Origin: Candidatus Omnitrophota bacterium
Lineage (GTDB): Bacteria; Omnitrophota; Gorgyraeia; Gygaellales; Profunditerraquicolaceae
Assembly: GCA_041651115.1 (NCBI GenBank)
Contig: JBAZJY010000003.1
Span: 194,524-258,523, forward strand
DNA length: 64,000 nt
Direction of reading: 5' to 3'
A model generated the notes under the pieces. That model was given only the letters and a program-made list of their open reading frames with translations. It was not told where the DNA came from and did no database searches. Made by a program: the position numbers and the translations under genes. Each line of letters opens with the position of its first letter. Position 1 is the stretch's first letter. Below, piece after piece: positions 3,001 to 51,684 of the stretch.

Positions 3001-6000
3001 CTTATTGTAACCGGACTCTGATATACCCCAGGGAATATTATTTTTGGCCGCATAACGGATCTGGCCGCTAACCGCTGCTTTATATGTCTGGTCCAGCACG
3101 CTTCCTTCGTAGTTCGGCATTACCAAAAGGGGCATGAGATATTCAAACATCGACCCGCCCCAAGAAACCAAAACAGGGTCTCCTTCTACTTTTGCGATCA
3201 TCCGGCCAAGCTTAAACCAATGATCCTGCGGCATTCTTCCTTGAGCAATCGCGACAAAACTGCAAAACCTGGCTTCGGACGCCAGAAGGTCATAACAACC
3301 GGGGTCCACCTTGTGTTCGCTGACATTGTATCCGATAGAAAGAAGGTCCGTACTCTTGTCATACAAAAATTCATATTCAACGCTGGAGATTTCGTTGCAC
3401 CGTAACACGATATAATCGATCGCTTTGATCCTTTCGGCGGACCGTGTCCCGGCTTCTTTGATTGCATCGCGAAGTTTCAATAACCATCCATGCAATCCTC
3501 TCGACTCATCGTCCACAAGAGATATATCCGTCATAATTTTCTCAATCAAAGGAACCAGCATCTGCTCCAGCCTTGCCACTTCCCCAAGCGTAGGGATCTC
3601 ATCTAAATTCCGTAGAGCCTCCCGAAGTTGAACAAGTCGCGCCTGCTGTTCATTATCGCCTGCGTCCCACATCCCCGGCATTTCCGGCGCAAGCAATATC
3701 CAAGGCGCAATATAAGACATGTCTTCCAAAAAGTCGTAACACTGCCGCTCCAAGGCGCGCGCCCAAATTCTGCCTTGCTCATAATGCTTATGATCCGACC
3801 CGGAAAAAACTTTTGAAACATCCTTTGAAAGCTGGCGCAAAAATGCGTAGATCTCCGAAAGACAAACGGAAGTAATTTTCCTTTTTTCCTGAAATTGCGC
3901 GATCCTTTCAGAAATTTCTCGAAAGAACCCGGCGACACTGCTCTTTTGGCTTCTCTCAATCTCCGCGACGCTCTGATGCAGGATCTGCAGGGTATCTTCC
4001 AGCCCGTCGAATATCTTAACAGAAACGATCTTCTGAGAATTCATTTCCGCCAGCCCGGAGCGCAAGATCATTAAATGGCCGGTCAAGTTTCCGCTATCTA
4101 CCGATGAAACATAAAGAGGCTCCAAAGGTTTAAGCGTCTCTGTATCATACCAGTTGTAAAAATTACCCCGATACCTTTGCATAAGATTTAAGGTATCGAA
4201 TGTTTTTTCCGTCCTGTTAAACATCATCCCCATCGAAACATAACCAAAATCGTAGGCTGTCAAATTAGCAAGAAGCGACAGGCCGATATTCGTTGGTGAA
4301 GTCCTATGGGCCAATGCGCTGACAGGCTCCTCCTGAAAATTGTCTAGCGGCAGCCAATGATCCTTTTCGGTAACAAAATTCTCAAAGAACGCCCAGTTCT
4401 TCCGGGCAAAACTCCTGAGAAAAATAATTTGCTCTTTGGAAAGCATGATCTTGCGGGCAGGAGAAGACCGGCTGATCCAATAAGCTACTGCGGGAGAAAC
4501 AAACCACAGGCTTAATAGAACCAGGGCAAGCGCGTCGAAGCGCGGGAAAAATACCGTAAAACAGATTAACAGCAAAACAGCGGTAATCGGTTCAAACAAG
4601 ATATTCTTGTAACAGCTTAGAATATTATTCGGCAAAAAAGCTTCCGCTTCGAAGAAAGTCGTCCATTTCAGCAAATTTCTTCGCGATACAAACATCCTCC
4701 ACAAAGTCCGCGTGATCGCATCCAGACAATAGAAAAATTCATGCAGTAAAAAAACAAGCGAAAAGAAAAACCGGAGTGCGTTCCTTTTAAATAATGACAC
4801 TACCAATCTAAAATGGGTTATAAAAGTAAGGGTTTTGGGTTTTCTCACGGCCTCCGACAGGGACATCGGCACAAGGGGGAAACCGAGAAGAGCAATGACG
4901 AGAGCCGACCACATCCAGGAGGGTTGAAAAAATATCCATCCTGATAAAAGCAGCAAAACTATTGCTAAAGGAACTACGCTGCGCCTTAAGTTATCCGCGA
5001 TCTTCCACTGCGACAAGAAAGAAATCGGGTTTTTTGCTTTTGCGCCGCCGAGGACGCGAACGGAACTGAATAACCAGGGAATGATCTGCCAATCCCCGCA
5101 GATCCAACGGTATCTCCGGCTCAAATCCTTAAGATATCCTGACGGGTATTTTTCGTAAAATTGGACATCCGTCACAAGCCCTGACCGGGCATAACAACCT
5201 TCTAAAAGATCATGGCTCAATATAGAATTTTCCGGAAAACGGCCATCCATGGATCTTTCGAACGCATCCACATCATAAAGCCCCTTCCCGACAAAAGACC
5301 CTTCAAGGAAAAGATCCTGGTAAACATCAGACACCGCTTTGGTATAAGGATCGATTCCTATATCGCCTCCGAAAATTTTCACGAATAGCGAAGGATTTTC
5401 CCCGGGATAGCCGGATTCGACTCTGGGCTGGAGAATCCCGTACCCGGAAACAACCCGTTGTTTTTTTTCGTCATAGACCGGCCGGTTCAAGGGATGCTCT
5501 ATCACGCCCACGAGTTCTCGCGCGGCGTTGCGCGACATCCAGGTATCCGCATCCAAAGTAATGACATATTTAACGTCCTGAAGCCTCTGGGGATCACCGA
5601 TGATCGCGCTGAAACGCCCTTCGCCTTTTCCGCGAAGAAATGCGTTTAAATCCCCTATCTTGCCACGCTTACGTTCGTACCCCATCCATACCTTTTCATT
5701 TTTATTCCACTTGCGGGGCCTATGAAAAAAATAAAAAACGTACTCTTTTTGCCTACGGTATTTATAATTCAACTGCTCGATACCTTCCATAACCTGAGCC
5801 AGAAGCGCTTGATCCTCAGGCATCTTTTCCTGCGCTGCATCAGAAAAATCCGTTAAAAGCGCAAAATCCGTATTGGCGTCAATATTCGCAAGATAACGGA
5901 CCTCTAACCCTTCGAGAAGTGATTCAACCGTCCGCGCATCGCTAATTATACAAGGGACTACGACCAGTGTATGCGCATAAGCAGGAATTCCTTCTGAAAA

Positions 6001-8753: not shown

Positions 8754-8822
8754 CGCGCCCCGCCTAGCGCTATCTTTTCAAAAAACTGGCGAAATTTTTA
8801 GGGGAGGAAAGTCTGTTTACTT
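8754..8822. repeat. GC-rich direct repeat copy A, about 70 bp, roughly 85 percent identical to copy B at 10255-10323
   Basis: cgcgccccgcctagcgctatc(t/c)ttt caaaa..actg(g/c)cg(a/c)aatttttagggg..., preceded by GC hairpin GGGGCGCGG/CCGCGCCCC. Confidence 0.7.
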
Positions 8823-10254: not shown

Positions 10255-10323
10255 CGCGCCCCGCCTAGCGCTATCCTTTCAAAATACTGCCGCAATTTTT
10301 AGGGGGAAGAAATTGTTACTTTT
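10255..10323. repeat. GC-rich direct repeat copy B (partner of 8754-8822); in minus orientation it carries the RBS/promoter region of the 99-aa gene
   Basis: Alignment to copy A; preceded by hairpin GCGCG actgggta CGCGC. Confidence 0.7.
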
Positions 10324-10653: not shown

Positions 10654-10733
10654 TGGGGTGGCTGACGGGGATCGAACCCGCAAAACCTCTAGAGCCACAG
10701 TCTAGCGCTCTGACCAATTGAGCTACAGCCACC
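10654..10733 (-). tRNA. tRNA-His (anticodon GTG) with encoded G-1 and CCA
   Basis: Reverse complement reads G-GTGGCTG TA GCTCAATTGGTCAGAGC ... CTGTGGC loop ... TTCGATC ... CAGCCAC C CCA. Confidence 0.85.
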
Positions 10734-10740
10734 ATATTTA

Positions 10741-11199
10741 CTATGAGTGGAGAATAGCGTGGCAATTACAACATATTCTTTCTAAATTATCAATTTTATT
10801 ATTTTTTCTGTTTCCATCTTTATGATGGACAACTAAGACTCGCTTATCGGGAATCCCGCACCTATTACATTTATATGGAATATTATATCTGCGCATTAAA
10901 TCACGATAAGCAGTTTCTCCGGAAATCCAATTTGGGGCATTAACACCATAACGGACATTTCTATTTTCCCAAGAACAATGACAAGCTACGCCACAAAAGA
11001 ATTTATTTCTTTTTGATCTCTTAAAGTCTTTAGGAGTCCTCCAAACTTTTTTCCCGCAATAAGCACATTCAACCCATTTACCTTTAAATTGAGCCTTGGT
11101 TCGACATTTTATAGAACAATATTTACCCCACCCTTTTCTTGCATGAAAAGGTTTTATATAGAATTCCTTACCGCAAATTTTACACTTTTTGTTAGGCAC
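10741..11199 (-). CDS. HNH endonuclease with multiple CxxC zinc-ribbon motifs
   Basis: 152 aa; C-terminal VVHHKDGNRKNNKIDNLERICCNCHAILH matches the HNH motif. Confidence 0.8.
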   Translation of the reverse strand: MPNKKCKICGKEFYIKPFHARKGWGKYCSIKCRTKAQFKGKWVECAYCGKKVWRTPKDFKRSKRNKFFCGVACHCSWENRNVRYGVNAPNWISGETAYRDLMRRYNIPYKCNRCGIPDKRVLVVHHKDGNRKNNKIDNLERICCNCHAILHS

Positions 11200-11275
11200 G
11201 TAAAAATTATATCAAAGAACAATAAATATGTCAAATCAATAAACTAGCTCACGGTTAGATGCTCTAACCTTCAAT

Positions 11276-12508: not shown

Positions 12509-12524
12509 AAGGTTATATTTTATA

Positions 12525-12598
12525 TGCGCCTGGGCCGAATCGAACGGCCAACCTACGGCTTAGAAGGCAGTTGCTCTATCCATTTGAGCTACAGGCGC
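12525..12598 (-). tRNA. tRNA-Arg (anticodon TCT)
   Basis: Cloverleaf: acceptor GCGCCTG/CAGGCGC, D-arm GCTC..GAGC, anticodon loop CTTCTAA, T-arm GGCCG TTCGATT CGGCC. Confidence 0.8.
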
Positions 12599-12640
12599 AT
12601 TGCTATCTATCCTCCCGCCAGAAAGCGGCGGGATTAGTTC

Positions 12641-12690
12641 GGCCATACAACTTAGCTTCGCTATCGCTAGCTAAGTTGTGGCCTCACTTA
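12641..12690. repeat. Conserved hairpin element (ggccatacaacttagc...gctaagttgtggcc); a homologous copy lies at 51420-51468
   Basis: Inverted repeat acaacttagc/gctaagttgt flanked by ggcc; about 80 percent identical to the element beside tRNA-Lys. Confidence 0.6.
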
Positions 12691-12710
12691 ATTTGAGCTA
12701 CAGGCGCATT
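12691..12710. repeat. 20-bp exact direct repeat of the tRNA-Arg 5' end (copy of 12582-12601)
   Basis: atttgagctacaggcgcatt occurs twice, 109 bp apart. Confidence 0.8.
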
Positions 12711-12711
12711 C

Positions 12712-13182
12712 TTACTTAATTATAAATTCATTGGAATTGACGGTCAGCCATTTCCAATCTTCTGATGAAGCACTGTTTCTAATCTGATAGGAAACTACAA
12801 GGCGATATGTGCCTGGATCTGCCTTGATACTTTTTTCGGTTCCATCAATATAGATCAGCGGATCCCATTCATAAGTATTGGACTCTCCGGATTTCATTTC
12901 TTCAGGAGGGCCGATATCGCGTATGCAATGGGGATACTGACAGTACGTAAACAATTTCTCCCAATTTCCGGATGAAGTTTTTTTCTCGGCATAACGAATG
13001 CCAAAGCCTGAGCTCGTGCCGCCAATATGGGAAAAAATACTCTGCGTTGAATTATTTTTTAAAGTTATCTTTACGGATTCTCCTTGCGAATACTCAAGTT
13101 TATCAGTGGTTACCGTCGCTTCCTGCGCCCAGGCGCAGGTAAAAAATAAGATAAGAGATAAAATTGCTATTATGAACTTCAT
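12712..13182 (-). CDS. Secreted hypothetical protein
   Basis: 156 aa with signal peptide MKFIIAILSLILFFTCAWAQEA. Confidence 0.5.
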   Translation of the reverse strand: MKFIIAILSLILFFTCAWAQEATVTTDKLEYSQGESVKITLKNNSTQSIFSHIGGTSSGFGIRYAEKKTSSGNWEKLFTYCQYPHCIRDIGPPEEMKSGESNTYEWDPLIYIDGTEKSIKADPGTYRLVVSYQIRNSASSEDWKWLTVNSNEFIIK

Positions 13183-13191
13183 ATTTTTAAA

Positions 13192-13269
13192 TGGTCGGGG
13201 CGACAGGACTTGAACCTGTGACCTCTTGCTCCCAAAGCAAGCGCTCTAGCCAAACTGAGCCACGCCCCG
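13192..13269 (-). tRNA. tRNA-Pro (anticodon TGG) with the bacterial C1-G72 pair and encoded CCA
   Basis: Acceptor CGGGGCG/CGCCCCG, anticodon stem CTTGC/GCAAG with loop TTTGGGA, T-loop TTCAAGT. Confidence 0.85.
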
Positions 13270-13316
13270 CTAGTCTTAACTACAAGTGGCGAAATCCTCG
13301 CGCTTTATGCGGGGAT

Positions 13317-13333
13317 GAGCCACGCCCCGCTAT
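13317..13333. repeat. 17-bp direct repeat of the tRNA-Pro 5' end (copy of 13256-13272)
   Basis: tgagccacgccccgcta occurs twice, 61 bp apart. Confidence 0.75.
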
Positions 13334-13379
13334 TTTTCCGTCAGGTGGCGCTCCATAACTTATGGCCTCATTCATTATA

Positions 13380-13994
13380 TCAACCGCTCTTCGTCCGCTC
13401 AATACATTTCTCTAAAATCTTCCTTGCTTTTTCCAAGGCGTGGTAGCGGTGGCTCATTTTATGTTTTACCCGGATGCCGAGCTGGGCAAAAGTCTTTTTG
13501 TATTTAGGTATGACAAATAACGGGTCGTAGCCAAAGCCGGCTGTGCCCTCTTGTTTAAAACCGATCAGGCCGCTGCATCTTCCTTCTACAACTCCGATCA
13601 GGCCCCTTGCATCGGCAATTGCCACAGCGCAGGCATAATATGCCTTGCGCTTTTTAAGCGGCACTGCCTCCAGCATTTTCAGGAGCTTCAAATTATTCTG
13701 CAGGTCGCTTTTATTTTTACCGGAAAACCGCGAAGAATAAACTCCCGGCTTGCCTTCTAAAGCCTCAACGCACAAGCCGGAATCTTCGCCAAGGGTCAGT
13801 TTCTTGGTAAAGCGGGCGATCTTCACTGCCTTCTTGATAGCGTTCGCCTTAAAGGTCTTTCCGTTTTCAATGATCCGCGGCGCAGCAGGATGATCTGCCA
13901 AAGAAGACAGCTTTGCGCCTAAGCCTGCCAATATCTCTTTTATTTCTTTCAGTTTTTTACGGTTCTTTGTCGCAACTACCAACTCAAAGCTCAT
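13380..13994 (-). CDS. rdgB: Non-canonical purine NTP pyrophosphatase (dITP/XTP pyrophosphatase, Ham1/RdgB family)
   Basis: 204 aa with typical family length and motifs; directly downstream of rph. Confidence 0.8.
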   Translation of the reverse strand: MSFELVVATKNRKKLKEIKEILAGLGAKLSSLADHPAAPRIIENGKTFKANAIKKAVKIARFTKKLTLGEDSGLCVEALEGKPGVYSSRFSGKNKSDLQNNLKLLKMLEAVPLKKRKAYYACAVAIADARGLIGVVEGRCSGLIGFKQEGTAGFGYDPLFVIPKYKKTFAQLGIRVKHKMSHRYHALEKARKILEKCIERTKSG

Positions 13995-20115: not shown

Positions 20116-20150
20116 ACCACCAAATTTTTGCTTGTCGCAAAAATTTGGTG
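20116..20150 (-). terminator. Perfect 15-bp-stem hairpin (ccaccaaatttttgc ttgtc gcaaaaatttggtgg) overlapping and following the tmRNA 3' end; a probable terminator
   Basis: Inverted repeat seen directly in the sequence; a second GC hairpin (gcgcggc ttgtc gccgcgc) at 20086-20104 shares the same loop. Confidence 0.5.
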
Positions 20151-20550
20151 GAGGTGGCGGCATTGAAGCCGCGTCCCTAAGTAGACAAGTAAAAGCCGCT
20201 ACATGCTTAGCCCCGCATTTTTACCTTGCGTTTGCAACTCCTGCGGGGCAGGATTTACAAACCGCAGCCCTTAGAGCTCCTCGCCCCGGCAACAAAGGCC
20301 AATTTGCCGAGGCCAGCCTGCTAAGTGCTCTATTTCATCCCACAGGCAGGACGAATAGAGGCTTCACGCTTAATTAAGCGCGAAGGCTGGTATGAACGCT
20401 GGTCTCGCGGTTAAAGGCGAAACCATTGTTCCCGCTAAACGGTTGCTTGTGTTTGCGTTTATATTGTGCAAGGATTGTTAACGCGGCCTACCCTGCGTCC
20501 GCGGCATGCTGCTCTTACCCGACTATCTTAAGTCGAGCCCTTTCACCCCC
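20146..20550 (-). ncRNA. ssrA: tmRNA (ssrA) immediately downstream of smpB
   Basis: 5' end GGGGGUGAAAGGGCUCGAC...GCAUGCCGCGG (PK1-like). 3' end GGACGCGGCUUCAAUGCCGCCACCUCCACCA, close to the E. coli tmRNA terminus. The acceptor pairs GGGGGUG/CACCUCC, including a G3.U70 wobble. The resume region AUAAACGCAAACACA resembles E. coli AUAGUCGCAAACGAC; the candidate tag reading frame is ANTSNRLAGTMVSPLTARPAFIPAFALN*, which is uncertain. Confidence 0.8.
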
Positions 20551-22000: not shown

Positions 22001-22112
22001 AATTTACCTCTTATTTAGACGATTCGCAGGGCTATATTATAACAGCAAAATAATACAGCAGCAATTCTTTATTTGACAGAATCAGGCGAGTAGAATATAC
22101 TTGAGGGTATTG

Positions 22113-22195
22113 CGGAGATGGCGGAATGGCAGACGCGCTGGTCTCAGAAGCCAGTGTCGCAAGACATGAGGGTTCAACTCCCTCTCTCCGCACCA
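22113..22195 (+). tRNA. tRNA-Leu (anticodon CAG), class II with a long variable arm and encoded CCA
   Basis: Acceptor GCGGAGA/TCTCCGC, anticodon stem CTGGT/GCCAG with loop CTCAGAA, variable arm TGTCGCAAGACAT, T-loop TTCAACT. Confidence 0.8.
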
Positions 22196-23769
22196 AACTT
22201 AGAGAGAGGGACTCTCTCCGCACCAAACTTAGAGAGAGGGACTCTCTCCGCACCAAACTTAGAGAGAGGGACTCTTACAAAGTAACCGGAATCTTCATCC
22301 CCATCAAGAACAGCATCAGGATAGCGCCTATTAAAAGACCCCATCATCTCACTGCGGATCCCCGGGTCAATAATTATGCTGCTAAAACCCCTGCTTTGCC
22401 CGGCTGCAATAACCCTTAATACCTCCGGCACTCCCAAGAGGCATTCACCAAAATAATAAGCAACATGAATTATCCTTGAGCCGTCCGGCATTAAAAATGC
22501 GCTGGTTTTAGCCAGGGGAGCGATAGATTCAAGATTAATAGGCTCATCGATCCTCTTTACTGCCCCTGCAGTGAAGATAAAAAAGGCCTTCCCTGCATTT
22601 ATATAACTCCTGAACAAATATATCTTATCTTTCCCGCGCTCAATGCCGATAAGCTGCGAGGGATCATGTTTCTTAAAAACAGGCCATGTTTTTTTAAGTA
22701 AATAAGGATAATAAATGATCCCGGAGAGAAGCCGCGGGCCGTCGTCAGTCCAGTGCCAGTATTTCCCAAAAAAGAACTGCGTCCCTAATATTATAATGAG
22801 CAGGACCCGCAAGGCATTACGAAAAAACAGTGCACGTAATTCAGACAACGCTAACCAACCCTCAACCGCCAACCAGGCAATAAAAGGATACAAATATAAC
22901 CAGTATTTAGGCGTAGTAAAAGCGCGCATATAGAATACGCACAAGGGCAAAACGCCTATGCCAAACAGAAGGACCGTAAGCCATCTGCGGCGAGCAATGA
23001 CCCTTGACAGGCCGATAACGGCAGATAAAATTATCGCTACCGGCAGGGCAGATAATAAATTTATGAGAGCGGCGTTAAGCGGCAAAGAGAAAATTGCGTA
23101 ATGTTGGCGCGCCTGATGCATAATTAAGGATATATCCAAACGAAAGGTTTTCATGAAATATATCCACACAACCGCCATGACGATCACAGAAAAAATAACG
23201 TCTTTCAAGCGCCCCTTCTTGCAATAAGCTGCCGATAGAAAACAGGGAAAAATCCAGATCGCGTCGACCCGGGCATAAAAAGCAAGAACCATGGCAATGC
23301 CGGATGCAGGGCAAATAATATTGGGATTATCGGGTAACGAGAGAATATAAAAAGCCAGGCATAAAAAGAAAAATGCCAGAATGGAAGAATTAGGATAGGC
23401 GGCGGAGATGATGATCTCCGGGATAAGCAGGCAGGCAGTAATGAAACACCGGGCAAATTTCCTTGAGGTTAATCGCTTAGCTCCGAAGTATAGTAAAAAG
23501 AGAGAAACTACCAGACATAAAACAGAAACGGTATTTGCTAAAGCAGGCAGAAAATTTAACGGTAATCCCGGCAGCAAATGATAAATGCCTTTGAATAAAT
23601 TTTCATATAACGGCTGGATATTTTCCCTGTATAGCGAGATGCCCTCCATTTTCTTTATTAAGCCGGCTATCCCGGCAAGGACGAATCCGTCATCGCCTTC
23701 AAAAAATGGCGTAATCGTAGAATACAGCCAGTAAGATACGTATGAAAGCAGCGCGAGGAATATGAACAT
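22174..23769 (-). CDS. Polytopic membrane protein, GT-C-like (PMT/ArnT-like glycosyltransferase fold). Its C-terminus runs through the tRNA-Leu-derived tandem repeats, so the true stop may lie upstream.
   Basis: 531 aa; more than 10 TM helices; C-terminal RVPLSKFGAE x3 encoded on the opposite strand of tRNA-Leu and its repeats. Confidence 0.45.
   Translation of the reverse strand: MFIFLALLSYVSYWLYSTITPFFEGDDGFVLAGIAGLIKKMEGISLYRENIQPLYENLFKGIYHLLPGLPLNFLPALANTVSVLCLVVSLFLLYFGAKRLTSRKFARCFITACLLIPEIIISAAYPNSSILAFFFLCLAFYILSLPDNPNIICPASGIAMVLAFYARVDAIWIFPCFLSAAYCKKGRLKDVIFSVIVMAVVWIYFMKTFRLDISLIMHQARQHYAIFSLPLNAALINLLSALPVAIILSAVIGLSRVIARRRWLTVLLFGIGVLPLCVFYMRAFTTPKYWLYLYPFIAWLAVEGWLALSELRALFFRNALRVLLIIILGTQFFFGKYWHWTDDGPRLLSGIIYYPYLLKKTWPVFKKHDPSQLIGIERGKDKIYLFRSYINAGKAFFIFTAGAVKRIDEPINLESIAPLAKTSAFLMPDGSRIIHVAYYFGECLLGVPEVLRVIAAGQSRGFSSIIIDPGIRSEMMGSFNRRYPDAVLDGDEDSGYFVRVPLSKFGAERVPLSKFGAERVPLSKFGAERGS
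22181..22270. repeat. Three tandem copies of a 30-bp unit (ctctctccgcaccaaacttagagagaggga) that begins with the tRNA-Leu 3' end; each unit is a hairpin (ccctctct/agagaggg)
   Basis: Exact tandem copies at 22181, 22211 and 22241; they encode the RVPLSKFGAE x3 C-terminal repeats of the minus-strand ORF. Confidence 0.85.
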
Positions 23770-25671: not shown

Positions 25672-26540
25672 ATTCGCGCCCTCTTATTACCGGCCGCTGC
25701 CTTCCCGGACGCTATTCTTGCCGTGATCATCCCCGCAAAAGAAGCGGCATTACCTAAAATCATAAGTAAAAATAAATAAGCTGCTTTCCAAAAAGAATAG
25801 GCGTTTTTTCTGCAGCAAGCAAGGTATATCGTAAAGAACTCCCGTATCGTTACGTTCTTGCGCTTCGTCGCCGTATTGTAATTACCATAAAAAAACAGCT
25901 TCTTTAAGCAGGTTACAGCGGCCTTGACTTCCATATGCCAGACCTTAGCGTTATCAAAATAGGCAACGCTGGCAGCGCCGTAATGCCTTGCGCACCTCTG
26001 GACCATTTCGGTATCGCCGGTAACCGGATGTTCCGAAAATTTACCCAGCTCTTTGAAAACAGAAGCGCGCACGGCCATATTATTGGTGTATCCGTAGTAT
26101 TTTTCGCTGATCCGATTAGTAAAGATGTGCCTGCTTATCTCGCGCTGAAACTCCTCAAATAATTTTGCCGCGGCAGAGCATCCAGGACGAAAATAGACGG
26201 CGCCTAAGGCGATAAGGACGCCGGGGTCTTCCATTGCCTTCCGGAACTGGCTTAGCCAATCGCCGGAAACGACGCAATCTGCGTCAGTAAAAGCAATGAT
26301 CTCCCCCCTTGCCATTTGCAACCCGCGGTTACGGGCAACATAAACATTGTGATTGTGTTCATTGAGCAGCTGTATTTCGCTGAATTGCCTGACAAAAGAA
26401 GATGAGCCGTCGCTGGAGTCATTATCAATAAATATCAACTCCCGTTCAGCCTCGGGAAAATCCTGGGCAAGCAGAGACCTGGCGCAATCCTTTATATATT
26501 TTCCCTCGTTAAGAAACGGAACAATCACAGAGAAAGTCAT
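25668..26540 (-). CDS. Family 2 glycosyltransferase (GT2); paralog of 31280..31963
   Basis: SVIVPFLNE...DADCV GT2 motifs; about 70 percent identity to its paralog. Confidence 0.8.
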   Translation of the reverse strand: MTFSVIVPFLNEGKYIKDCARSLLAQDFPEAERELIFIDNDSSDGSSSFVRQFSEIQLLNEHNHNVYVARNRGLQMARGEIIAFTDADCVVSGDWLSQFRKAMEDPGVLIALGAVYFRPGCSAAAKLFEEFQREISRHIFTNRISEKYYGYTNNMAVRASVFKELGKFSEHPVTGDTEMVQRCARHYGAASVAYFDNAKVWHMEVKAAVTCLKKLFFYGNYNTATKRKNVTIREFFTIYLACCRKNAYSFWKAAYLFLLMILGNAASFAGMITARIASGKAAAGNKRARI

Positions 26541-29209: not shown

Positions 29210-30168
29210 GGCCGGCCTTCTCTCCTAAAGAAAAAATAAGAAAAAAATCCGCAGATTATGCCGATACCCATAACGACATGGTCAAAAAAGGTGACCACAT
29301 ACGAAGCAAGCGCAAAAATAACCCCTTTCTCCCGCTTGAGAAAAATAATGAAGTCCAAATTCAAGATGAGCCAGATGAAAAATAAGAACGACAACGGAGG
29401 CAGGACAATACCGGCTAAGATCAACTGCGCCAATATCACGCTTGCCAGCTGCCTTTTAGGAGAATGGGCATAGCCGACCCTTTTACTCAATAATTCTTTC
29501 CAGCCTTTATAACGGATGAAGATGTGCGCCCAGTCAAAAGGAATACGGAAATCATTCAGTATAAAAGAAAAGATATTATATTTTTTAAGATGCGCCACTT
29601 CCAGATCAGGCAAAAAAGCGATCTGTTTTCCGCAGGAAACAAGCTGCTGGCCTAAAGCAGTATCGTCGGCAATCTTCACAAGAGGCTCAAAAGCAACGAG
29701 CACTGCTTTCCGGGCCGCATAGATGGAGCCGTAGATAAAAGTCACTCTTTCGGGAAGCCGGCGAAAAATATAATTCATATAGAGATTCTTATACTGGCTG
29801 AAGAAACGGTTATCCGGACAGTCTTTTGAAAGCAGGCCCGTGACTACGTCTACTTCTTTGTGACTGTCAAAATACGCGTTAATTTTAAACAGGGTATCCG
29901 GCCGTATCAAAACATCGGAATCTACGTTAACAACGATCTCTCCCCTTGCCGCGTTAATGCCTGCCTGCCGCGCAGCGATCCGGCCGGCGTTATTAATAAG
30001 TTTGATCACGCGATCGGCATAAGGCCCGGCTATGGCCCTTGTCTCGTCACTGGAATTACAATCAACGACAATAACCTCATACTCTTTATAGCCGGAATTC
30101 CGTATATGTTCAAGGCATTCTTTTATGGTATTCCGGCTGTTATAAGTAGGGACAACCACTGAGAGCAT
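29206..30168 (-). CDS. GT2 glycosyltransferase with C-terminal TM helices; paralog of 32985..33956
   Basis: VVVPTYNS...VDSDV GT2 motifs; C-terminal hydrophobic helices; about 70 percent identity to its paralog. Confidence 0.8.
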   Translation of the reverse strand: MLSVVVPTYNSRNTIKECLEHIRNSGYKEYEVIVVDCNSSDETRAIAGPYADRVIKLINNAGRIAARQAGINAARGEIVVNVDSDVLIRPDTLFKINAYFDSHKEVDVVTGLLSKDCPDNRFFSQYKNLYMNYIFRRLPERVTFIYGSIYAARKAVLVAFEPLVKIADDTALGQQLVSCGKQIAFLPDLEVAHLKKYNIFSFILNDFRIPFDWAHIFIRYKGWKELLSKRVGYAHSPKRQLASVILAQLILAGIVLPPLSFLFFIWLILNLDFIIFLKREKGVIFALASYVVTFFDHVVMGIGIICGFFSYFFFRREGRP

Positions 30169-31279: not shown

Positions 31280-31963
31280 TTAATTACCTGTCAGCATATG
31301 GTACTTGCCGTAAAAGAACAGCTTTTTAAGGCAAGTCAGGGCGCTTTTTACTTCCATATGCCAGGCCTTTGCATTGTCAAAATAGATAACGCTGGAACTA
31401 CCGTTATGTTTTGCGCATTTTTTGACGATCCCGGTATCTCCGGCAACCGGACATGTAGAAAAATTACCCAATTGCCTGAAGGCAGAGGCGCGCACAGCCA
31501 TGTTATTGGTGTAGCCGTAATATTTTTCCGTGATACGATTAGTAAAAATATACCTGGCCCTTGCGTTACCGAGGTCTTCAAATAATCTTGCCGCGGCAGA
31601 GCATTGAGGATGGAAATATACGCTGCCTAATGCAATAAGCACTTCGGGGCCTTGCATTGCTTCCTGAAACCTGCTTAGCCAGTCGGCCGGGACGACGCAG
31701 TCTGCGTCTGTGAAAACAATGATCTCTCCTCTTGCTGCCTGCAGGCCGCGGTTACGGGCGAAATAGACATTGCGCCTGAGTTCGTTAAACAGCTGTATTT
31801 GGCTGAATTGCCTGATAAAAGAAGCTGAACCGTCAGTAGAGCCGCTATCAATAAAGATAAGTTCGTATTCCTCTTTAGGAAAATCCTGGGCGAGAAGCGA
31901 GTTAACGCAGTCCTTTATGTATTTCTCTTCGTTAAAGAAAGGTACGATTACGGAAAAGACCAT
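31280..31963 (-). CDS. GT2 glycosyltransferase, shorter paralog of 25668..26540 lacking the C-terminal TM tail
   Basis: About 70 percent identity to 25668..26540 over 225 aa. Confidence 0.8.
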   Translation of the reverse strand: MVFSVIVPFFNEEKYIKDCVNSLLAQDFPKEEYELIFIDSGSTDGSASFIRQFSQIQLFNELRRNVYFARNRGLQAARGEIIVFTDADCVVPADWLSRFQEAMQGPEVLIALGSVYFHPQCSAAARLFEDLGNARARYIFTNRITEKYYGYTNNMAVRASAFRQLGNFSTCPVAGDTGIVKKCAKHNGSSSVIYFDNAKAWHMEVKSALTCLKKLFFYGKYHMLTGN

Positions 31964-32992: not shown

Positions 32993-33956
32993 TTTTCCTT
33001 CTAAAAAACAAATAAGAAAAACAGCCGCAAAATATCCCCATGCCCATCACCAGTTGGTCAAAAAAAGTAACGATACAGGACTGAAACGCAAAAATCCTTC
33101 CTCTTTCTTTTCCGAGAAAAATAATAAAGTCAAGATTCAGGAAAAACCAGATAAGAAAAGAAACTAGCAGCGCAAGCAGGGAAAAATAACCCAGGCACAA
33201 AATCAACGGTATCAGCAATACGCTGATTATCTGCTTGTTTGAAGCATGCGCAAAACCTGCCTTCTTCTGCAGCAGTTCTTTCCAACCTTTATAGCGGATA
33301 AAAAGGCGCGCCCAGTCAAAAGGAATACGAAAATCATTCTTAATAAAAGAAAAAATATTATACTGTTTAAGGTGCACGACTTCTAAGTCCGGCAAAAATG
33401 CGATCTGCCTGCCGCACAAGACAAGCTGCTGGCCGAAAGCCGTGTCATCGGCGATCTTTACAAAAGGCTCAAAATCAGCAAGCGCCTCCTTTCTGGCCGC
33501 GTATATGGAACCATAAACAAAGGTCACTCTTTCAGGAAGGCGGCGAAAAATATAATGCATATAAAGATTCTTATACTGGCTAAAGAAACCCCGGTCAGGA
33601 CATTCTTTGGAAAGGATGCCGGTGAGTGCATCAACATCTTTATGGCTTGAAAAATATTCCTTGATTTTAACGAGGGTATCCGGCCGGATCAAAATATCCG
33701 AATCAACATTAACGATAATTTCCCCTTTTGCCGCACTAATGCCTGCCTGCCGCGCCACGGCCCAGCCGCTGTTTTCTGTCAGCTTTACGATACGGTCGGC
33801 ATAAGGCTCGGCCAGGGCAATAGTCTGGTCGCCTGAACTATCATCAACGATAATAAGCTCGTAATCTTTATAGAGAGAATTCCGGATTGATTTAAGGCAC
33901 TCTTGTATGGAATGCTGGCTGTTATAAGTAGGAACGATTACGGACAAAAAGGGCAT
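32985..33956 (-). CDS. GT2 glycosyltransferase with C-terminal TM helices; paralog of 29206..30168
   Basis: SVIVPTYNS...VDSDI motifs. Confidence 0.8.
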   Translation of the reverse strand: MPFLSVIVPTYNSQHSIQECLKSIRNSLYKDYELIIVDDSSGDQTIALAEPYADRIVKLTENSGWAVARQAGISAAKGEIIVNVDSDILIRPDTLVKIKEYFSSHKDVDALTGILSKECPDRGFFSQYKNLYMHYIFRRLPERVTFVYGSIYAARKEALADFEPFVKIADDTAFGQQLVLCGRQIAFLPDLEVVHLKQYNIFSFIKNDFRIPFDWARLFIRYKGWKELLQKKAGFAHASNKQIISVLLIPLILCLGYFSLLALLVSFLIWFFLNLDFIIFLGKERGRIFAFQSCIVTFFDQLVMGMGIFCGCFSYLFFRRKNE

Positions 33957-49459: not shown

Positions 49460-50908
49460 TTAACCCTTGATAACACCGAGCGGTCGCATTCTACAGACGC
49501 GCTTGGAAATACCGGCATTATGCACGACACTTACCACATCGTTAACGTCCTTATAGGCAGACGGAGCTTCTTCTACGATAGTGCCGCGGCCTGAAGCTTG
49601 GACTATTATACCCTTAGACTCTAATTCTTTCAATAGCGTATTCAGATTTGTCGATTTCGTGGAGGCAGTGCGGGATTTAACCCTGCCTGCGCCATGGCAC
49701 GTCGAGCCAAACGTTTCTTCTTCTGCTTTTTTCGTACCGACAAGCAGGTATGAATTCCTGCCCATGTCTCCGGGAATGATCACCGGCTGGCCGCTTTCGC
49801 GGTAGCGTTCGGGGAGCGCGGGATTACCCGGGCCAAAAGCGCGGGTGGCGCCTTTTCTATGCACGCACAAAAGCTTTTCCTTCCCGTCAATAACGTATTT
49901 TTCTATTTTCGCGATATTGTGGGCAACGTCATAGATCAGCGACATTCCCATTTTTTGCCAGGACATACTGAATATCCGCTCAAAACTTTTACGCGCCAGA
50001 TGCATCAGGCACTGCCGGTTTGCCCAGGCGTAATTTGCCGCGCAGCGCATTGCGCCGATATACTGTTTGGCTTCAGGCGAATTAACCGGCGCGCAGGCAA
50101 GCTGGCGGTCAGGCACATTGATATTATATTTCTGCAGGCAGGCGATCATGCTCCTTGAATAATCTTCGCAGATCTGATAACCAAAGCCGCGCGAACCGGA
50201 ATGGATCATTACCATTACCTGGCCGAGATCTAATTCAAACCTGTCGCAAAGATCGCGGTCAAAAAGCTGGTCAATAACCTGAATTTCCAAAAAGTGGTTT
50301 CCTGAACCAAGCGTGCCGGATTGCGCCTTGCCTCTTTCATATGCGCGGTCTGAAACTGCATCCGGGTCAGCTCCGGGAATCGCGCCGGATTCTTCCGTGC
50401 ATTCAAGGTCGTCCTGGCAGCCATAGCCGTTTTCCACTGCCCATTTTGCGCCTTTGAGCAAAAGCTGCTTCTCTTCTTTTGCGCTTACGCGAATATCGCC
50501 TTTTGAACCTACGCCGGAAGGCACATCGGAAAATAACGCATAAACCAGATCCCTGATCTTATCTTTTATTTCTTCATACTGGAAATTTGTTTTTAAGAGC
50601 CGCACCCCACAGTTGATGTCAAAACCAACCCCTCCGGGCGAGACTGCTCCGCCTTGTTCAATATCGGTAGCCGCCACTCCCCCGATAGGAAAACCATATC
50701 CCCAGTGAATATCCGGCATGGCCAACGAATAATTCACGATCCCCGGCAAAAAAGCAACATTCGCCACCTGCTCCAGCGCTTTATCGTGGTAAATATCTTT
50801 AAGGAGTTTTTCATCGGCGTAGATCAGGCCGTCAACTTTCATCCCGGCCTTATACGACCTGGGTATGCGCCAGTGAAAATCATCAATCTTTTCAAGCATC
50901 CCTGTCAT
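49460..50908 (-). CDS. rtcB: RNA-splicing ligase RtcB
   Basis: 482 aa; RtcB family sequence. Confidence 0.9.
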   Translation of the reverse strand: MTGMLEKIDDFHWRIPRSYKAGMKVDGLIYADEKLLKDIYHDKALEQVANVAFLPGIVNYSLAMPDIHWGYGFPIGGVAATDIEQGGAVSPGGVGFDINCGVRLLKTNFQYEEIKDKIRDLVYALFSDVPSGVGSKGDIRVSAKEEKQLLLKGAKWAVENGYGCQDDLECTEESGAIPGADPDAVSDRAYERGKAQSGTLGSGNHFLEIQVIDQLFDRDLCDRFELDLGQVMVMIHSGSRGFGYQICEDYSRSMIACLQKYNINVPDRQLACAPVNSPEAKQYIGAMRCAANYAWANRQCLMHLARKSFERIFSMSWQKMGMSLIYDVAHNIAKIEKYVIDGKEKLLCVHRKGATRAFGPGNPALPERYRESGQPVIIPGDMGRNSYLLVGTKKAEEETFGSTCHGAGRVKSRTASTKSTNLNTLLKELESKGIIVQASGRGTIVEEAPSAYKDVNDVVSVVHNAGISKRVCRMRPLGVIKG

Positions 50909-50918
50909 TTTATTTTTC

Positions 50919-51341
50919 CTATACGTCGAATATTACTTCTGCCTGCCAAAGGCCGGATTCCTGCCAGATTCTCAAACCGTGATAGGTCGCAGCCTTGATC
51001 TCGACGTTCACCTTACAGTCTTTAGCGGGCCTGCCAAAGGCAAGCGCCTGCAATGAATCGCCCTCAAGTTTATTTACCTTAAAATCGAAAAATATCAGTT
51101 CTTTAGTGTTGGATAAAGACAATAATTCATTGAGCCAAAATACCAACAGTTCTTCTAAATTACCTGCTTCTTGTTTTATGCTGATTTCCTGCTGGATAGC
51201 TGAGCCGGAGAGTTGATGCGGAGCCTCGGCAATGATATCAAACATTGCCAAGCCTGCACTTTTAAAAAGCGAGGCCGGGTCTTTTGCCTTAACCCTGATG
51301 CCGATATCAGCGGTGTGTTCAATGACCTCATAATCTTTCAT
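50919..51341 (-). CDS. Archease (RtcB activator)
   Basis: 140 aa; MKDYEVIEHTADIGIRV motif. Confidence 0.85.
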   Translation of the reverse strand: MKDYEVIEHTADIGIRVKAKDPASLFKSAGLAMFDIIAEAPHQLSGSAIQQEISIKQEAGNLEELLVFWLNELLSLSNTKELIFFDFKVNKLEGDSLQALAFGRPAKDCKVNVEIKAATYHGLRIWQESGLWQAEVIFDV

Positions 51342-51419
51342 ATTGAGGCCTTAATGGATTACCCCAGCTTAAACACTTAAAAATTTCTACAAAATTTTTA
51401 AGCAAGCTGGGGTTAATTC

Positions 51420-51468
51420 GGCCCAACAACTTATGTTCGCTTCGCTCCATAAGTTGTGGCCTCATTTA
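51420..51468. repeat. Conserved hairpin element (ggcccaacaacttatg...cataagttgtggcc), homolog of 12641-12690, just 3' of tRNA-Lys; a second hairpin (ccccagctt...aagctgggg) lies at 51363-51412
   Basis: Inverted repeats seen directly; about 80 percent identity between the two loci. Confidence 0.6.
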
Positions 51469-51470
51469 AA

Positions 51471-51543
51471 TGAGCCGCCTTGGAATCGAACCAAGAACCT
51501 TGACCTTAAGAGGGTCCTGCTCTACCAATTGAGCTAGCGGCCC
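51471..51543 (-). tRNA. tRNA-Lys (anticodon CTT)
   Basis: Acceptor GGGCCGC/GCGGCTC (with G2.U71), D-arm GCTC/GAGC, anticodon loop CTCTTAA, T-arm CTTGG TTCGATT CCAAG. Confidence 0.8.
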
Positions 51544-51602
51544 GAAAATTACACGTTTTGTTCATTGCCGCGCAGCGAAATGCGTCAAGTATTATGACGC
51601 GT

Positions 51603-51632
51603 GAGCTAGCGGCCCGAAAATTACACGTTTTG
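51603..51632. repeat. 30-bp exact direct repeat of the tRNA-Lys 5' end plus its upstream flank (copy of 51531-51560)
   Basis: gagctagcggcccgaaaattacacgttttg occurs twice, 72 bp apart. Confidence 0.8.
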
Positions 51633-51684
51633 GAGCAAATATTATAACATATTTTTAAATTTTGTTTATATTTTTTACTCCGGG

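Follow-up and report, generated by a model that had tools for sequence, protein, structure and literature searches.

Genes for transfer RNA (tRNA) are classic landing pads for integrases and group I introns. In a 64-kb stretch of a Candidatus Omnitrophota genome (64,000 nt of contig JBAZJY010000003.1, hereafter the window), several tRNA genes are accompanied by a partial copy of one of their own ends, and an earlier note on this DNA had drawn attention to such duplicates at tRNA-Arg, tRNA-Pro and tRNA-Lys. Here it is argued that the duplicates are probably displaced, non-functional tRNA end pieces, left by selfish elements that landed in tRNA genes of this lineage. They are best read as scars or miniature derivatives of free-standing homing-endonuclease cassettes and of tRNA-seeking hairpin elements.

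Several described systems come close to this arrangement. Work by Paquin, Laforest and Lang from 1994 and 2000 reportedly deals with a mobile endonuclease element in the mitochondrial atp6 gene of Allomyces and with mitochondrial double-hairpin elements. At atp6 an endonuclease open reading frame (ORF) is said to enter an essential gene together with a replacement gene end, the displaced original end persisting as a pseudo-fragment, and the double-hairpin elements are said to be short, GC-rich and mobile and to lie beside such insertions. REP/BIME elements and the palindromic elements of Rickettsia are short, multicopy, hairpin-forming and non-coding, are tolerated inside RNA or protein genes, and show empty and filled sites. 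In phage T4, the recognition site of the GIY-YIG enzyme SegB includes the T-psi-C motif of tRNA, and the enzyme drives the inheritance of its tRNA region (PMC2330249); its nuclease activity has also been reported to amplify a tRNA-containing segment in tandem, by way of recombination (PMC13096335). These results provide an experimental precedent for the nuclease action on tRNA genes that is proposed below. Finally, the tRNA-linked repeats (TLRs) of E. coli, of the tyrT type, are short units in tRNA and ribosomal RNA (rRNA) operons, of which the last 18-19 bp correspond to the 3' end of the gene just upstream and which occur one to five times per locus (PMC8144298).

The window contains eight tRNA genes and one transfer-messenger RNA (tmRNA) gene, for which ARAGORN and Rfam are in agreement. 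Five of the tRNA genes are relevant here:

12524-12599, minus strand: intact tRNA-Arg(UCU), anticodon tct (ARAGORN; Rfam tRNA, 62.4 bits)
13192-13269, minus strand: intact tRNA-Pro(UGG), anticodon tgg (ARAGORN; Rfam)
51471-51543, minus strand: intact tRNA-Lys(CUU), anticodon ctt (ARAGORN; Rfam)
22112-22195, plus strand: intact tRNA-Leu(CAG) (ARAGORN; Rfam)
10654-10732, minus strand: intact tRNA-His(GUG) (ARAGORN; Rfam)

The window contains only four exact direct repeats with a length of 14 nt or more and a distance of no more than 150 nt, and every one of them lies at a tRNA end, namely the 5' end of tRNA-Arg, tRNA-Pro and tRNA-Lys and the 3' end of tRNA-Leu. The upstream position of the three 5'-end duplicates is as the earlier note described it, and so are the length and spacing at tRNA-Arg (20 nt exact, 12582-12601 and 12691-12710, 109 nt apart). 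At tRNA-Pro the 17 exact nucleotides stand (22 nt at 91%, 13256-13277 and 13316-13337) and the spacing is corrected from 61 to 60; at tRNA-Lys the spacing of 72 stands and the exact repeat is 31 rather than 30 nt long (51530-51560 and 51602-51632). At tRNA-Leu a 30-nt unit occurs three times (22182-22275) and takes in the last 14 nt of the tRNA. The three minus-strand duplicates start 1-17 nt before tRNA position 1 and stop at position 14-17, in the D-loop. Block shuffles of the window contained on average 0.02 such repeats, compared with the four observed, which agrees with the suggestion that these duplicates, together with the tRNA-Leu repeats and a conserved hairpin element, reflect a recurrent process and not chance. 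A fifth case, absent from the earlier note, is a decayed remnant of a tRNA-His 5' half (11247-11275), upstream of an HNH endonuclease ORF and the intact tRNA-His.

The pattern follows a strict polarity rule. A total of 194 tRNA genes in 1.08 Mb (the window and the related loci introduced below) were surveyed for exact copies of a gene end of at least 11 nt within 400 nt, and 35 of them (18%) were found to have one, compared with 3 of 925 distant control segments. The 5' end was copied upstream for 19 tRNAs and the 3' end downstream for 19, and the opposite arrangement (5' copy downstream, 3' copy upstream) was found at none of the 194. Of the 5' fragments, 16 of 17 end at position 12-19; the 3' fragments begin at position 55-72. 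Tandem arrays were found in L010, L011, L013, L029, L069 and L085 (locus numbers of relatives) and at the tRNA-Leu of the window.

Related loci were collected by scanning a genome collection with RdgB, which yielded 80 Omnitrophota loci, and closer relatives were added through protein look-ups; a metagenome scan with DUF748 contributed one locus only, L084. The order RdgB, tRNA-Pro, tRNA-Arg and, further on, tRNA-His is conserved across the RdgB loci. In L084 (RdgB 86% identical to that of the window), L088 and L089 (both 81%) and L090 (80%), the Pro and Arg sites are empty: they lack fragment and hairpin as well as ORF156, an ORF lying between the two tRNAs in the window. At these empty sites tRNA-Pro begins about 9 nt after an extended -10 promoter, TTGATATAAT, and the Pro-Arg spacer measures 111 nt in L090 and 13-33 nt in the other three. 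Upstream of each fragment of the window, the flank is like the native flank of the empty sites (for tRNA-Arg, ATTAAGTAAGAA compared with ATTAGAAGTAAGTA in L084) and the flank upstream of the intact copy is unlike it, so that the fragment sits at the ancestral position. At tRNA-Lys, L086 and L087 are empty and L085 contains five tandem 5'-fragment units of two kinds, of which one is homologous to the window unit, with compensatory changes in its hairpin. The earlier note had proposed this comparison, with identical duplications in relatives as the outcome that would speak for ancient and neutral copies; the opposite was found, the intervening 40-110 bp being missing in the closest relatives. 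Because these relatives are empty and the Lys copy number varies from 0 to 5, the sequences identify the duplications as apparently derived and variable features, not ancient neutral relics.

The tRNA-His locus of the window still carries a nuclease gene, in the following arrangement:

10741-11199, minus strand: free-standing HNH endonuclease ORF, 152 aa, ending 8 nt before tRNA-His (Pfam HNH_3, E 3e-6)
11206-11234, minus strand: promoter of the HNH-tRNA-His cassette, TTGACA-17-TATAAT (read from the sequence; conserved in all HNH loci)
11247-11275, minus strand: decayed remnant of the displaced old tRNA-His 5' half, about positions 15-43 (sequence comparison)

Orthologues of this HNH gene were found upstream of tRNA-His in nine further loci, and all ten, including the window, share the order of old tRNA-His 5' half, promoter (TTGACA-17-GATAtAAT), HNH ORF and intact tRNA-His. 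The old half extends from position -1 to about 38-43, ending just past the anticodon, and its state of decay differs among loci. Presence is variable as well, with 10 full and 2 truncated HNH genes at tRNA-His in about 42 loci and none in L084. In L088 and L066, the old and new tRNA-His halves represent different, equally plausible alleles. These loci show directly that a resident tRNA-His 5' half has been displaced by a cassette of promoter, nuclease and tRNA 5' half. Unlike in Allomyces, where the 3' end of a mitochondrial protein gene is concerned, the genes affected here are bacterial tRNA and tmRNA genes, mostly at their 5' ends, and no sequence relationship exists between the two systems. 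It was also observed that the HNH protein is conserved at least as well as the neighbouring RdgB (in L061, for example, 85.5% compared with 67%) and that its ORF is intact in 10 of 10 loci, which suggests that the protein may be under ongoing selection or spreading horizontally.

A second type of nuclease accompanies tRNA genes in the relatives, where ORFs of about 80 aa beside tRNAs correspond to GIY-YIG catalytic domains (Pfam E 1e-14 to 1e-16); NCBIfam returned only sub-threshold matches to "group I intron endonuclease" for them. A profile search identified 22 GIY-YIG ORFs in the loci, 15 of which have a tRNA or tmRNA on the same strand at a distance of no more than 150 nt, compared with an expected share of 7.8% (P ~2e-12). 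In L016 and L059 the order is old tRNA-Pro positions 1-28, a double hairpin, positions 29-41, the GIY-YIG ORF and an intact tRNA-Pro, and an equivalent layout is found at tRNA-His in L035 and L078. In L037, the ORF is followed by an intact tRNA-Pro with a foreign allele and then by positions 16-76 of the resident tRNA-Pro, with two double hairpins. In L047, L013, L028 and L021, the ORF is followed by a perfect palindrome composed of flank plus tRNA-Pro positions 1-9 and their inverted copy, and then by the same flank and the intact tRNA-Pro, a form that looks like the outcome of snap-back repair of a break. One of the two kinds of unit in L085 has the same design: its unit B consists of GGGCCGCTAA and a subsequent palindrome that ends in TAGCGGC, and it represents an inverted copy, of the snap-back type, of tRNA-Lys positions 3-9.

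Taken together, the nuclease loci display three features of homing cassettes. The nuclease ORF lies outside any intron or intein, beside its presumed target, both at the tRNA-His of the window (HNH) and in the relatives (GIY-YIG), which is not the case at the Arg, Pro and Lys loci of the window; it is present in some relatives and absent in others (HNH at tRNA-His, GIY-YIG at some Pro and His loci only); and a donor allele has taken the place of the resident one (the His halves of L088 and L066, and the tRNA-Pro of L037 compared with the displaced resident). As for SegB, which belongs to intronless homing in the tRNA cluster of phages T4 and T6, a small nuclease gene stands beside tRNAs outside introns and is statistically associated with them. 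Unlike SegB, the genes described here reside in bacterial chromosomes and encode minimal nucleases (a GIY-YIG protein of about 80 aa comprising the catalytic domain only, and the 152-aa HNH protein), for which cleavage of tRNA genes is putative; in addition, SegB amplifies whole genes, whereas here tRNA ends are partially duplicated and accompanied by hairpin modules. Literature searches combining GIY-YIG, tRNA and hairpin in bacteria returned no description of 5'-end tRNA duplications tied to HNH or GIY-YIG ORFs and to tRNA-loop-seeking hairpins.

Group I introns were also encountered in the same loci. tRNA-Arg(UCU) is split after position 34 by such an intron in L013, L026, L038, L053, L058, L061, L064, L065 and L059; ARAGORN misses these split genes, and the tRNA-Arg of the window has no intron. 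Several of the introns contain an ORF of about 150 aa (MHHTKFKADIGVAKCIADL...), which we would guess to be a homing endonuclease.

The conserved hairpin element that had been noticed at two loci of the window was recovered at both with a covariance model (12636-12691 and 51415-51469). This element, here called HP1, forms a hairpin of 56 nt that contains a 2-nt bulge and a conserved internal loop of tandem G-A pairs; 8 of its 17 pairs covary through compensatory changes, and it is joined to a second, GC-rich hairpin (HP2). In 1.07 Mb, 31 copies of HP1 scored above 30 bits, 20 of them within 150 nt of a tRNA or tmRNA and all of these on the same strand (P ~3e-15); these proximal copies are located immediately at the 3' end (Pro, Lys, tmRNA) or within the D-loop of a fragment of Arg or His. 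The anatomy of the duplicated loci of the window is as follows:

12691-12710, minus strand: displaced tRNA-Arg 5' fragment, from flank -3 to position 17 (identical to 12582-12601)
12636-12691, minus strand: HP1 of an HP1-HP2 module in the D-loop (17/18) of the Arg fragment (covariance model R1, 71.7 bits, E 5e-19; DNA fold z -4.8)
12612-12634, minus strand: HP2, GC-rich hairpin (CCCGCCGCTTTCTGGCGGG), the second half of the module (sequence and folding)
12600-12613, minus strand: tRNA-Arg sequence resuming after the module, GGATAGA (about positions 18-23), followed by the 6-nt linker TAGCAA and the intact tRNA (read from the sequence)
13316-13337, minus strand: displaced tRNA-Pro 5' fragment, from the flank to position 14 (repeat comparison)
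13270-13315, minus strand: Pro spacer, a hairpin whose 3' arm CCCCGC pairs with the fragment, followed by TTTCGCCACTTGTAGTTAAGAC (sequence and folding)
51561-51632, minus strand: one 72-nt tRNA-Lys 5'-fragment unit, from leader -17 to position 14, then a hairpin, then ATTTCGCTGCGCGG, complementary to the fragment (repeat comparison and folding)
51345-51470, minus strand: HP1-HP2 module adjoining the tRNA-Lys 3' end, with HP1 at 51415-51469 (76.4 bits; fold z -7.3)
22182-22275, plus strand: mirror-image Leu array of three tandem 30-nt units (repeat comparison and folding)

The Lys unit is homologous to unit A of the five-unit array of L085, and the Pro spacer shares sequence with the unit of L016 between its GIY-YIG ORF and tRNA-Pro; a search for the Pro and Lys spacer motifs across the loci returned only the window's own copies and, for Lys, L085. 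Folding indicated that the spacers often contain the complement of the fragment, which may be a signature of snap-back repair or may reflect selection against a free acceptor-strand copy that misfolds the precursor. Each Leu unit comprises the last 14 nt of tRNA-Leu and a trailer in which tRNA positions 62-71 recur as an inverted copy, GAGAGAGGGA. In being downstream, in carrying 14 nt of the tRNA 3' end and in being repeated three times, the Leu array has the anatomy of an E. coli TLR, as do the 3' fragments at other loci. TLRs derive from 3' ends only, whereas tRNA-Arg, tRNA-Pro, tRNA-Lys and tRNA-His have their 5' ends copied, and upstream. We know of no nuclease genes or mobile hairpins tied to TLRs, nor of an explanation for their origin.

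That the hairpin modules are mobile can be seen where filled and empty orthologous sites exist. The orthologous old tRNA-His fragment is unbroken in L088 and contains HP1-HP2 at 17/18 in L084, and the tmRNA gene of L025 (3039-3490) has a clean 42-nt double-hairpin insertion at 3388-3429 when compared with the window and L049. Furthermore, one double hairpin is nested within the loop of another in L016, and in L059 an HP1-HP2 module (1706-1810) occupies precisely the 5' splice junction of the group I intron in tRNA-Arg, where it separates U34 from the first base of the intron. None of these four insertions is accompanied by a duplication. Where a module lies within a fragment, the tRNA sequence resumes after it, with 12 of 13 nt matching in L058, 9 of 9 in L029 and 9 of 9 in L055, and the remnant behind the module in L030, GGACAGA, matches the D-loop variant of that species itself. 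L011 and L032 are mirror cases, in which a 3' partial copy is interrupted by a GC-rich double hairpin precisely at the T-loop. On the strength of the filled and empty orthologous sites, the modules can be regarded as discrete mobile insertions. We infer that they target loops in tRNA-like DNA and are retained only where they are harmless, which would explain why they are always found in the pseudo-fragment and never in the working copy.

Like miniature inverted-repeat transposable elements, HP1 is short, non-coding and multicopy, with conserved sequence and hairpin, and orthologous sites are empty or filled (the old-His fragment in L088 and L084; the tmRNA in the window and L049 compared with L025). 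A target-site duplication of fixed length is lacking: there is none at the tmRNA, 3'-flank and intron insertions, and the tRNA repeats are 12-55 nt long and do not flank the module symmetrically. REP/BIME and the Rickettsia elements differ from HP1-HP2 and the double hairpins in that the latter are almost confined to tRNA and tmRNA ends and tRNA-like loops. Unlike for REP/BIME, no REP-associated tyrosine transposase (RAYT) or other transposase is associated with them and no fixed target-site duplication is formed, the only linked ORF being a GIY-YIG gene in L080. In this single example, the ORF lies between the arms of HP2 with inverted HP1 copies flanking it, and an ORF-less twin is found 2.4 kb away. 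An exact-pattern scan of IMG/VR gave no match for a viral HP1. HP1 was also considered as a hammerhead or K-turn, and the core nucleotides were found by eye not to fit (there is no G5, and 4 bp separate the bulge from the G-A pairs).

These observations can be combined into a three-step model. In the first step, a cassette consisting of a promoter, a small HNH or GIY-YIG ORF and a replacement tRNA 5' part would enter a tRNA gene or, alternatively, a nuclease-induced break within the gene would be repaired out of register, with recombination anchored in the conserved tRNA on one side and an illegitimate junction on the other. As a consequence of this one-sided anchoring, the original 5' piece would remain upstream as a partial direct repeat and one intact tRNA would always be regenerated; mirror-image events would leave 3' pieces downstream. 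In the second step, which the empty and filled sites show, modules (HP1-HP2 or GC-rich double hairpins) insert just past the 3' end or in loops (at 12-18 in the D-loop, at position 26-29, at 57/58 in the T-loop), and would persist only at harmless places, namely the 3' flank, the pseudo-fragment, introns or tolerant parts of the tmRNA. In the third step, the nuclease ORF would decay and be deleted, and unequal crossing-over between the short repeats would expand or contract the arrays, which could have produced the short ORF-less units at Arg, Pro and Lys. The window would then hold several stages of this process: tRNA-His with the nuclease kept and the old half decayed, the Arg fragment with HP1-HP2 in its D-loop, the short ORF-less fragment-plus-hairpin units at tRNA-Pro and tRNA-Lys, and the 3' tandem version at tRNA-Leu.

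Several points weigh against this model. The profile search found no GIY-YIG gene in the 64-kb window and no nuclease ORF at its Arg, Pro and Lys loci. The Arg, Pro and Lys fragments do not differ from the resident tRNA, even in 1-17 flanking nucleotides, and in-situ duplication would fit this at least as well as replacement by a cassette; at tRNA-Arg, such a duplication may have been coupled to the insertion of the module. Cleavage of tRNA genes by an 80-aa GIY-YIG or a 152-aa HNH protein is a putative activity. Gain and loss cannot be told apart with certainty, since an empty site would be restored precisely if the repeats recombined with each other. The covariation of HP1 and its strict co-orientation with tRNAs could reflect a function at the RNA level. 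Finally, the survey is biased in its sampling, as it covers essentially five tRNA loci across about 85 species.

The model points to a third way of occupying tRNA genes, in which a nuclease cassette or hairpin lands and a short duplication of the 5' or 3' end keeps the gene alive. If confirmed, it would account for an annotation oddity of an uncultivated phylum (orphan tRNA fragments and odd leaders), offer a model for the origin of the long-unexplained tRNA-linked repeats of E. coli, and extend nuclease-driven amplification of the SegB type from phages to bacterial chromosomes; the minimal nucleases and the structured 56-nt element, with its apparent specificity for tRNA-gene loops, would be directly testable. 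More tentatively, and with distinctly less confidence, HP1-HP2, the double hairpins and the GIY-YIG ORF of about 80 aa might constitute a previously undescribed class of bacterial mobile element that recognises loops of tRNA and tmRNA DNA (D-loop, T-loop, 3' end), possibly extruded or single-stranded, and invades essential tRNA genes without an intron by duplicating their ends. Such elements would represent an alternative to the splicing solution of group I introns.

Among the other explanations, the one that fares best, while being rather unlikely in our assessment, is that the hairpin module itself causes the duplication: its insertion in the D-loop of the sole functional copy, or the immediate repair, would duplicate 12-55 nt as a rescue-type long target-site duplication. 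This would account for the exact repeat ending precisely at the module boundary, for the intact copy that adjoins every module within tRNA sequence, and for the identity of the fragments and a few flanking nucleotides to the resident gene. The His duplication, however, exists without a module in L088 and the module appears only later in the orthologous fragment of L084; the same modules are present without duplication in tmRNA, in 3' flanks and at an intron junction; the repeat length is inconstant; and the module lies inside the first copy and not between copies. Target-site duplications by small insertions had been among the candidates of the earlier note, of which the small insertions hold, given the empty and filled sites; the variable length of 12-55 nt, the position of the module within the first copy with tRNA sequence resuming after it, and the same modules without duplication elsewhere do not agree with the duplication part.

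A function of the fragment-hairpin units, as selected leader or trailer parts of the pre-tRNA (processing or stability signals, decoys, terminators or insulators), appears improbable. Its arguments are the structure of HP1 (8 of 17 pairs covarying, a conserved tandem G-A internal loop and a conserved bulge), the co-orientation of all tRNA-proximal copies with the tRNA, spacer complements that sequester the fragment, and predicted promoters that place the units inside the primary transcript:

12719-12747, minus strand: promoter-like site CTGACC-17-TATAAT just upstream of the Arg fragment (consensus match only)
13374-13402, minus strand: tRNA-Pro operon promoter TTGAGC-17-TATAAT with TG, in the 3' end of rdgB (conserved in relatives as TTGATATAAT)
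51641-51668, minus strand: promoter-like site TAAACA-16-TATAAT with TG, upstream of the first Lys unit (consensus match only)

With the first of these sites, the Arg fragment and its module would fall within the pre-tRNA leader. It has also been reported that the tRNA-linked repeats at rRNA operons in E. coli yield small RNAs that bind Hfq and CsrA (PMC8144298). A selected function is difficult to reconcile with the absence of the units from the same tRNAs in the closest relatives, with a copy number of 0 to 5, with spacers that are unrelated in sequence at different tRNAs, and with the linkage of the units to nuclease ORFs. Moreover, Rfam gave no match for the hairpin element or the spacers, only tRNA being returned, at permissive thresholds, in both regions. 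The hairpins and units show no terminator-like sites or tails, for which reason a role of the hairpins as terminators was rejected. The idea that promoter or processing signals had been repeated did not hold up, as the predicted promoters lie only upstream of the first copy.

Relics of att sites, left by an integrase-mediated island or prophage that entered the tRNA genes and was then deleted almost entirely, are very improbable and already largely refuted. Direct repeats of a tRNA end beside an intact gene are the classic signature of integration, and at other loci the polarity is right for the 3' fragments that follow Pro, Arg and Leu downstream, but Arg, Pro and Lys copy the 5' end and not the 3' end, the intervals of 41-89 nt consist of conserved hairpin modules, there is no integrase nearby, and tandem arrays reach five units. 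Pure replication slippage or misassembly at conserved tRNA sequence is hardly credible: slippage, which had also been suggested, or unequal crossing-over is needed to change the copy number of tandem arrays (Leu with three units in the window, and other loci) and does not explain how they originated, a simple tandem duplication would repeat the whole interval and not 17-31 of 60-109 nt, and an assembly artefact was ruled out by the recurrence of the architecture in SPAdes, MEGAHIT, IDBA and single-cell assemblies of many different species and by an identical sequence in an independent ENA assembly (MEGAHIT contig, ERZ27247363) and in a Logan contig.

Two further features lie near tRNA-Pro:

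12712-13182, minus strand: ORF156, secreted-looking and lineage-specific, between tRNA-Pro and the Arg fragment (no Pfam)
~13340-13375, minus strand: degenerate or collapsed HP1 copy between promoter and Pro fragment (13356-13370 with 2 mismatches; direct reading)

ORF156 (156 aa, signal-peptide-like) has no Pfam or NCBIfam match and no homologue in any of 87 related loci, and it was therefore rejected as a component of a shared cassette. The Pro-Arg spacer of other species contains different, unrelated ORFs and looks like an insertion hot spot. The extended -10 element TTGATATAAT (13374-13383 in the window, and at the same place in most loci) is embedded in the last codons of rdgB; transcription from it would start a few nucleotides before the mature tRNA-Pro, and the tRNA-His and tRNA-Lys promoters are similarly near, which suggests that native tRNA leaders are very short.

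An operon for the RNA ligase RtcB and archease (49460-51341, minus strand) follows directly downstream of tRNA-Lys and its HP1-HP2, and this synteny is kept in relatives; in L085 the RtcB gene is apparently split by an intein (Intein_splicing matches). The interrupted tRNA copies were considered as tRNA genes with introns that need RtcB and archease, and this was rejected since every one of them is truncated and adjoined by an intact copy. For the tmRNA of the window (20146-20550, minus strand), ARAGORN predicts an unusually long tag peptide (ANTSNRLAGTMVSPLTARPAFIPAFALN), and the tag region aligns poorly with relatives; in L025 and L049, the tmRNA is followed downstream by GIY-YIG ORFs at a distance of about 100-130 nt. 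Just downstream of tRNA-His, near an EcoRI-methylase-like fragment of 47 aa, about 1.5 kb are enclosed by a direct repeat of 51 nt (92% identical, 8754-8804 and 10255-10305), which may mark the ends of another inserted element. Finally, two pairs of long direct repeats with about 75-77% identity (25867-26451 and 31290-31874; 29417-29716 and 33199-33498) presumably represent paralogous genes.

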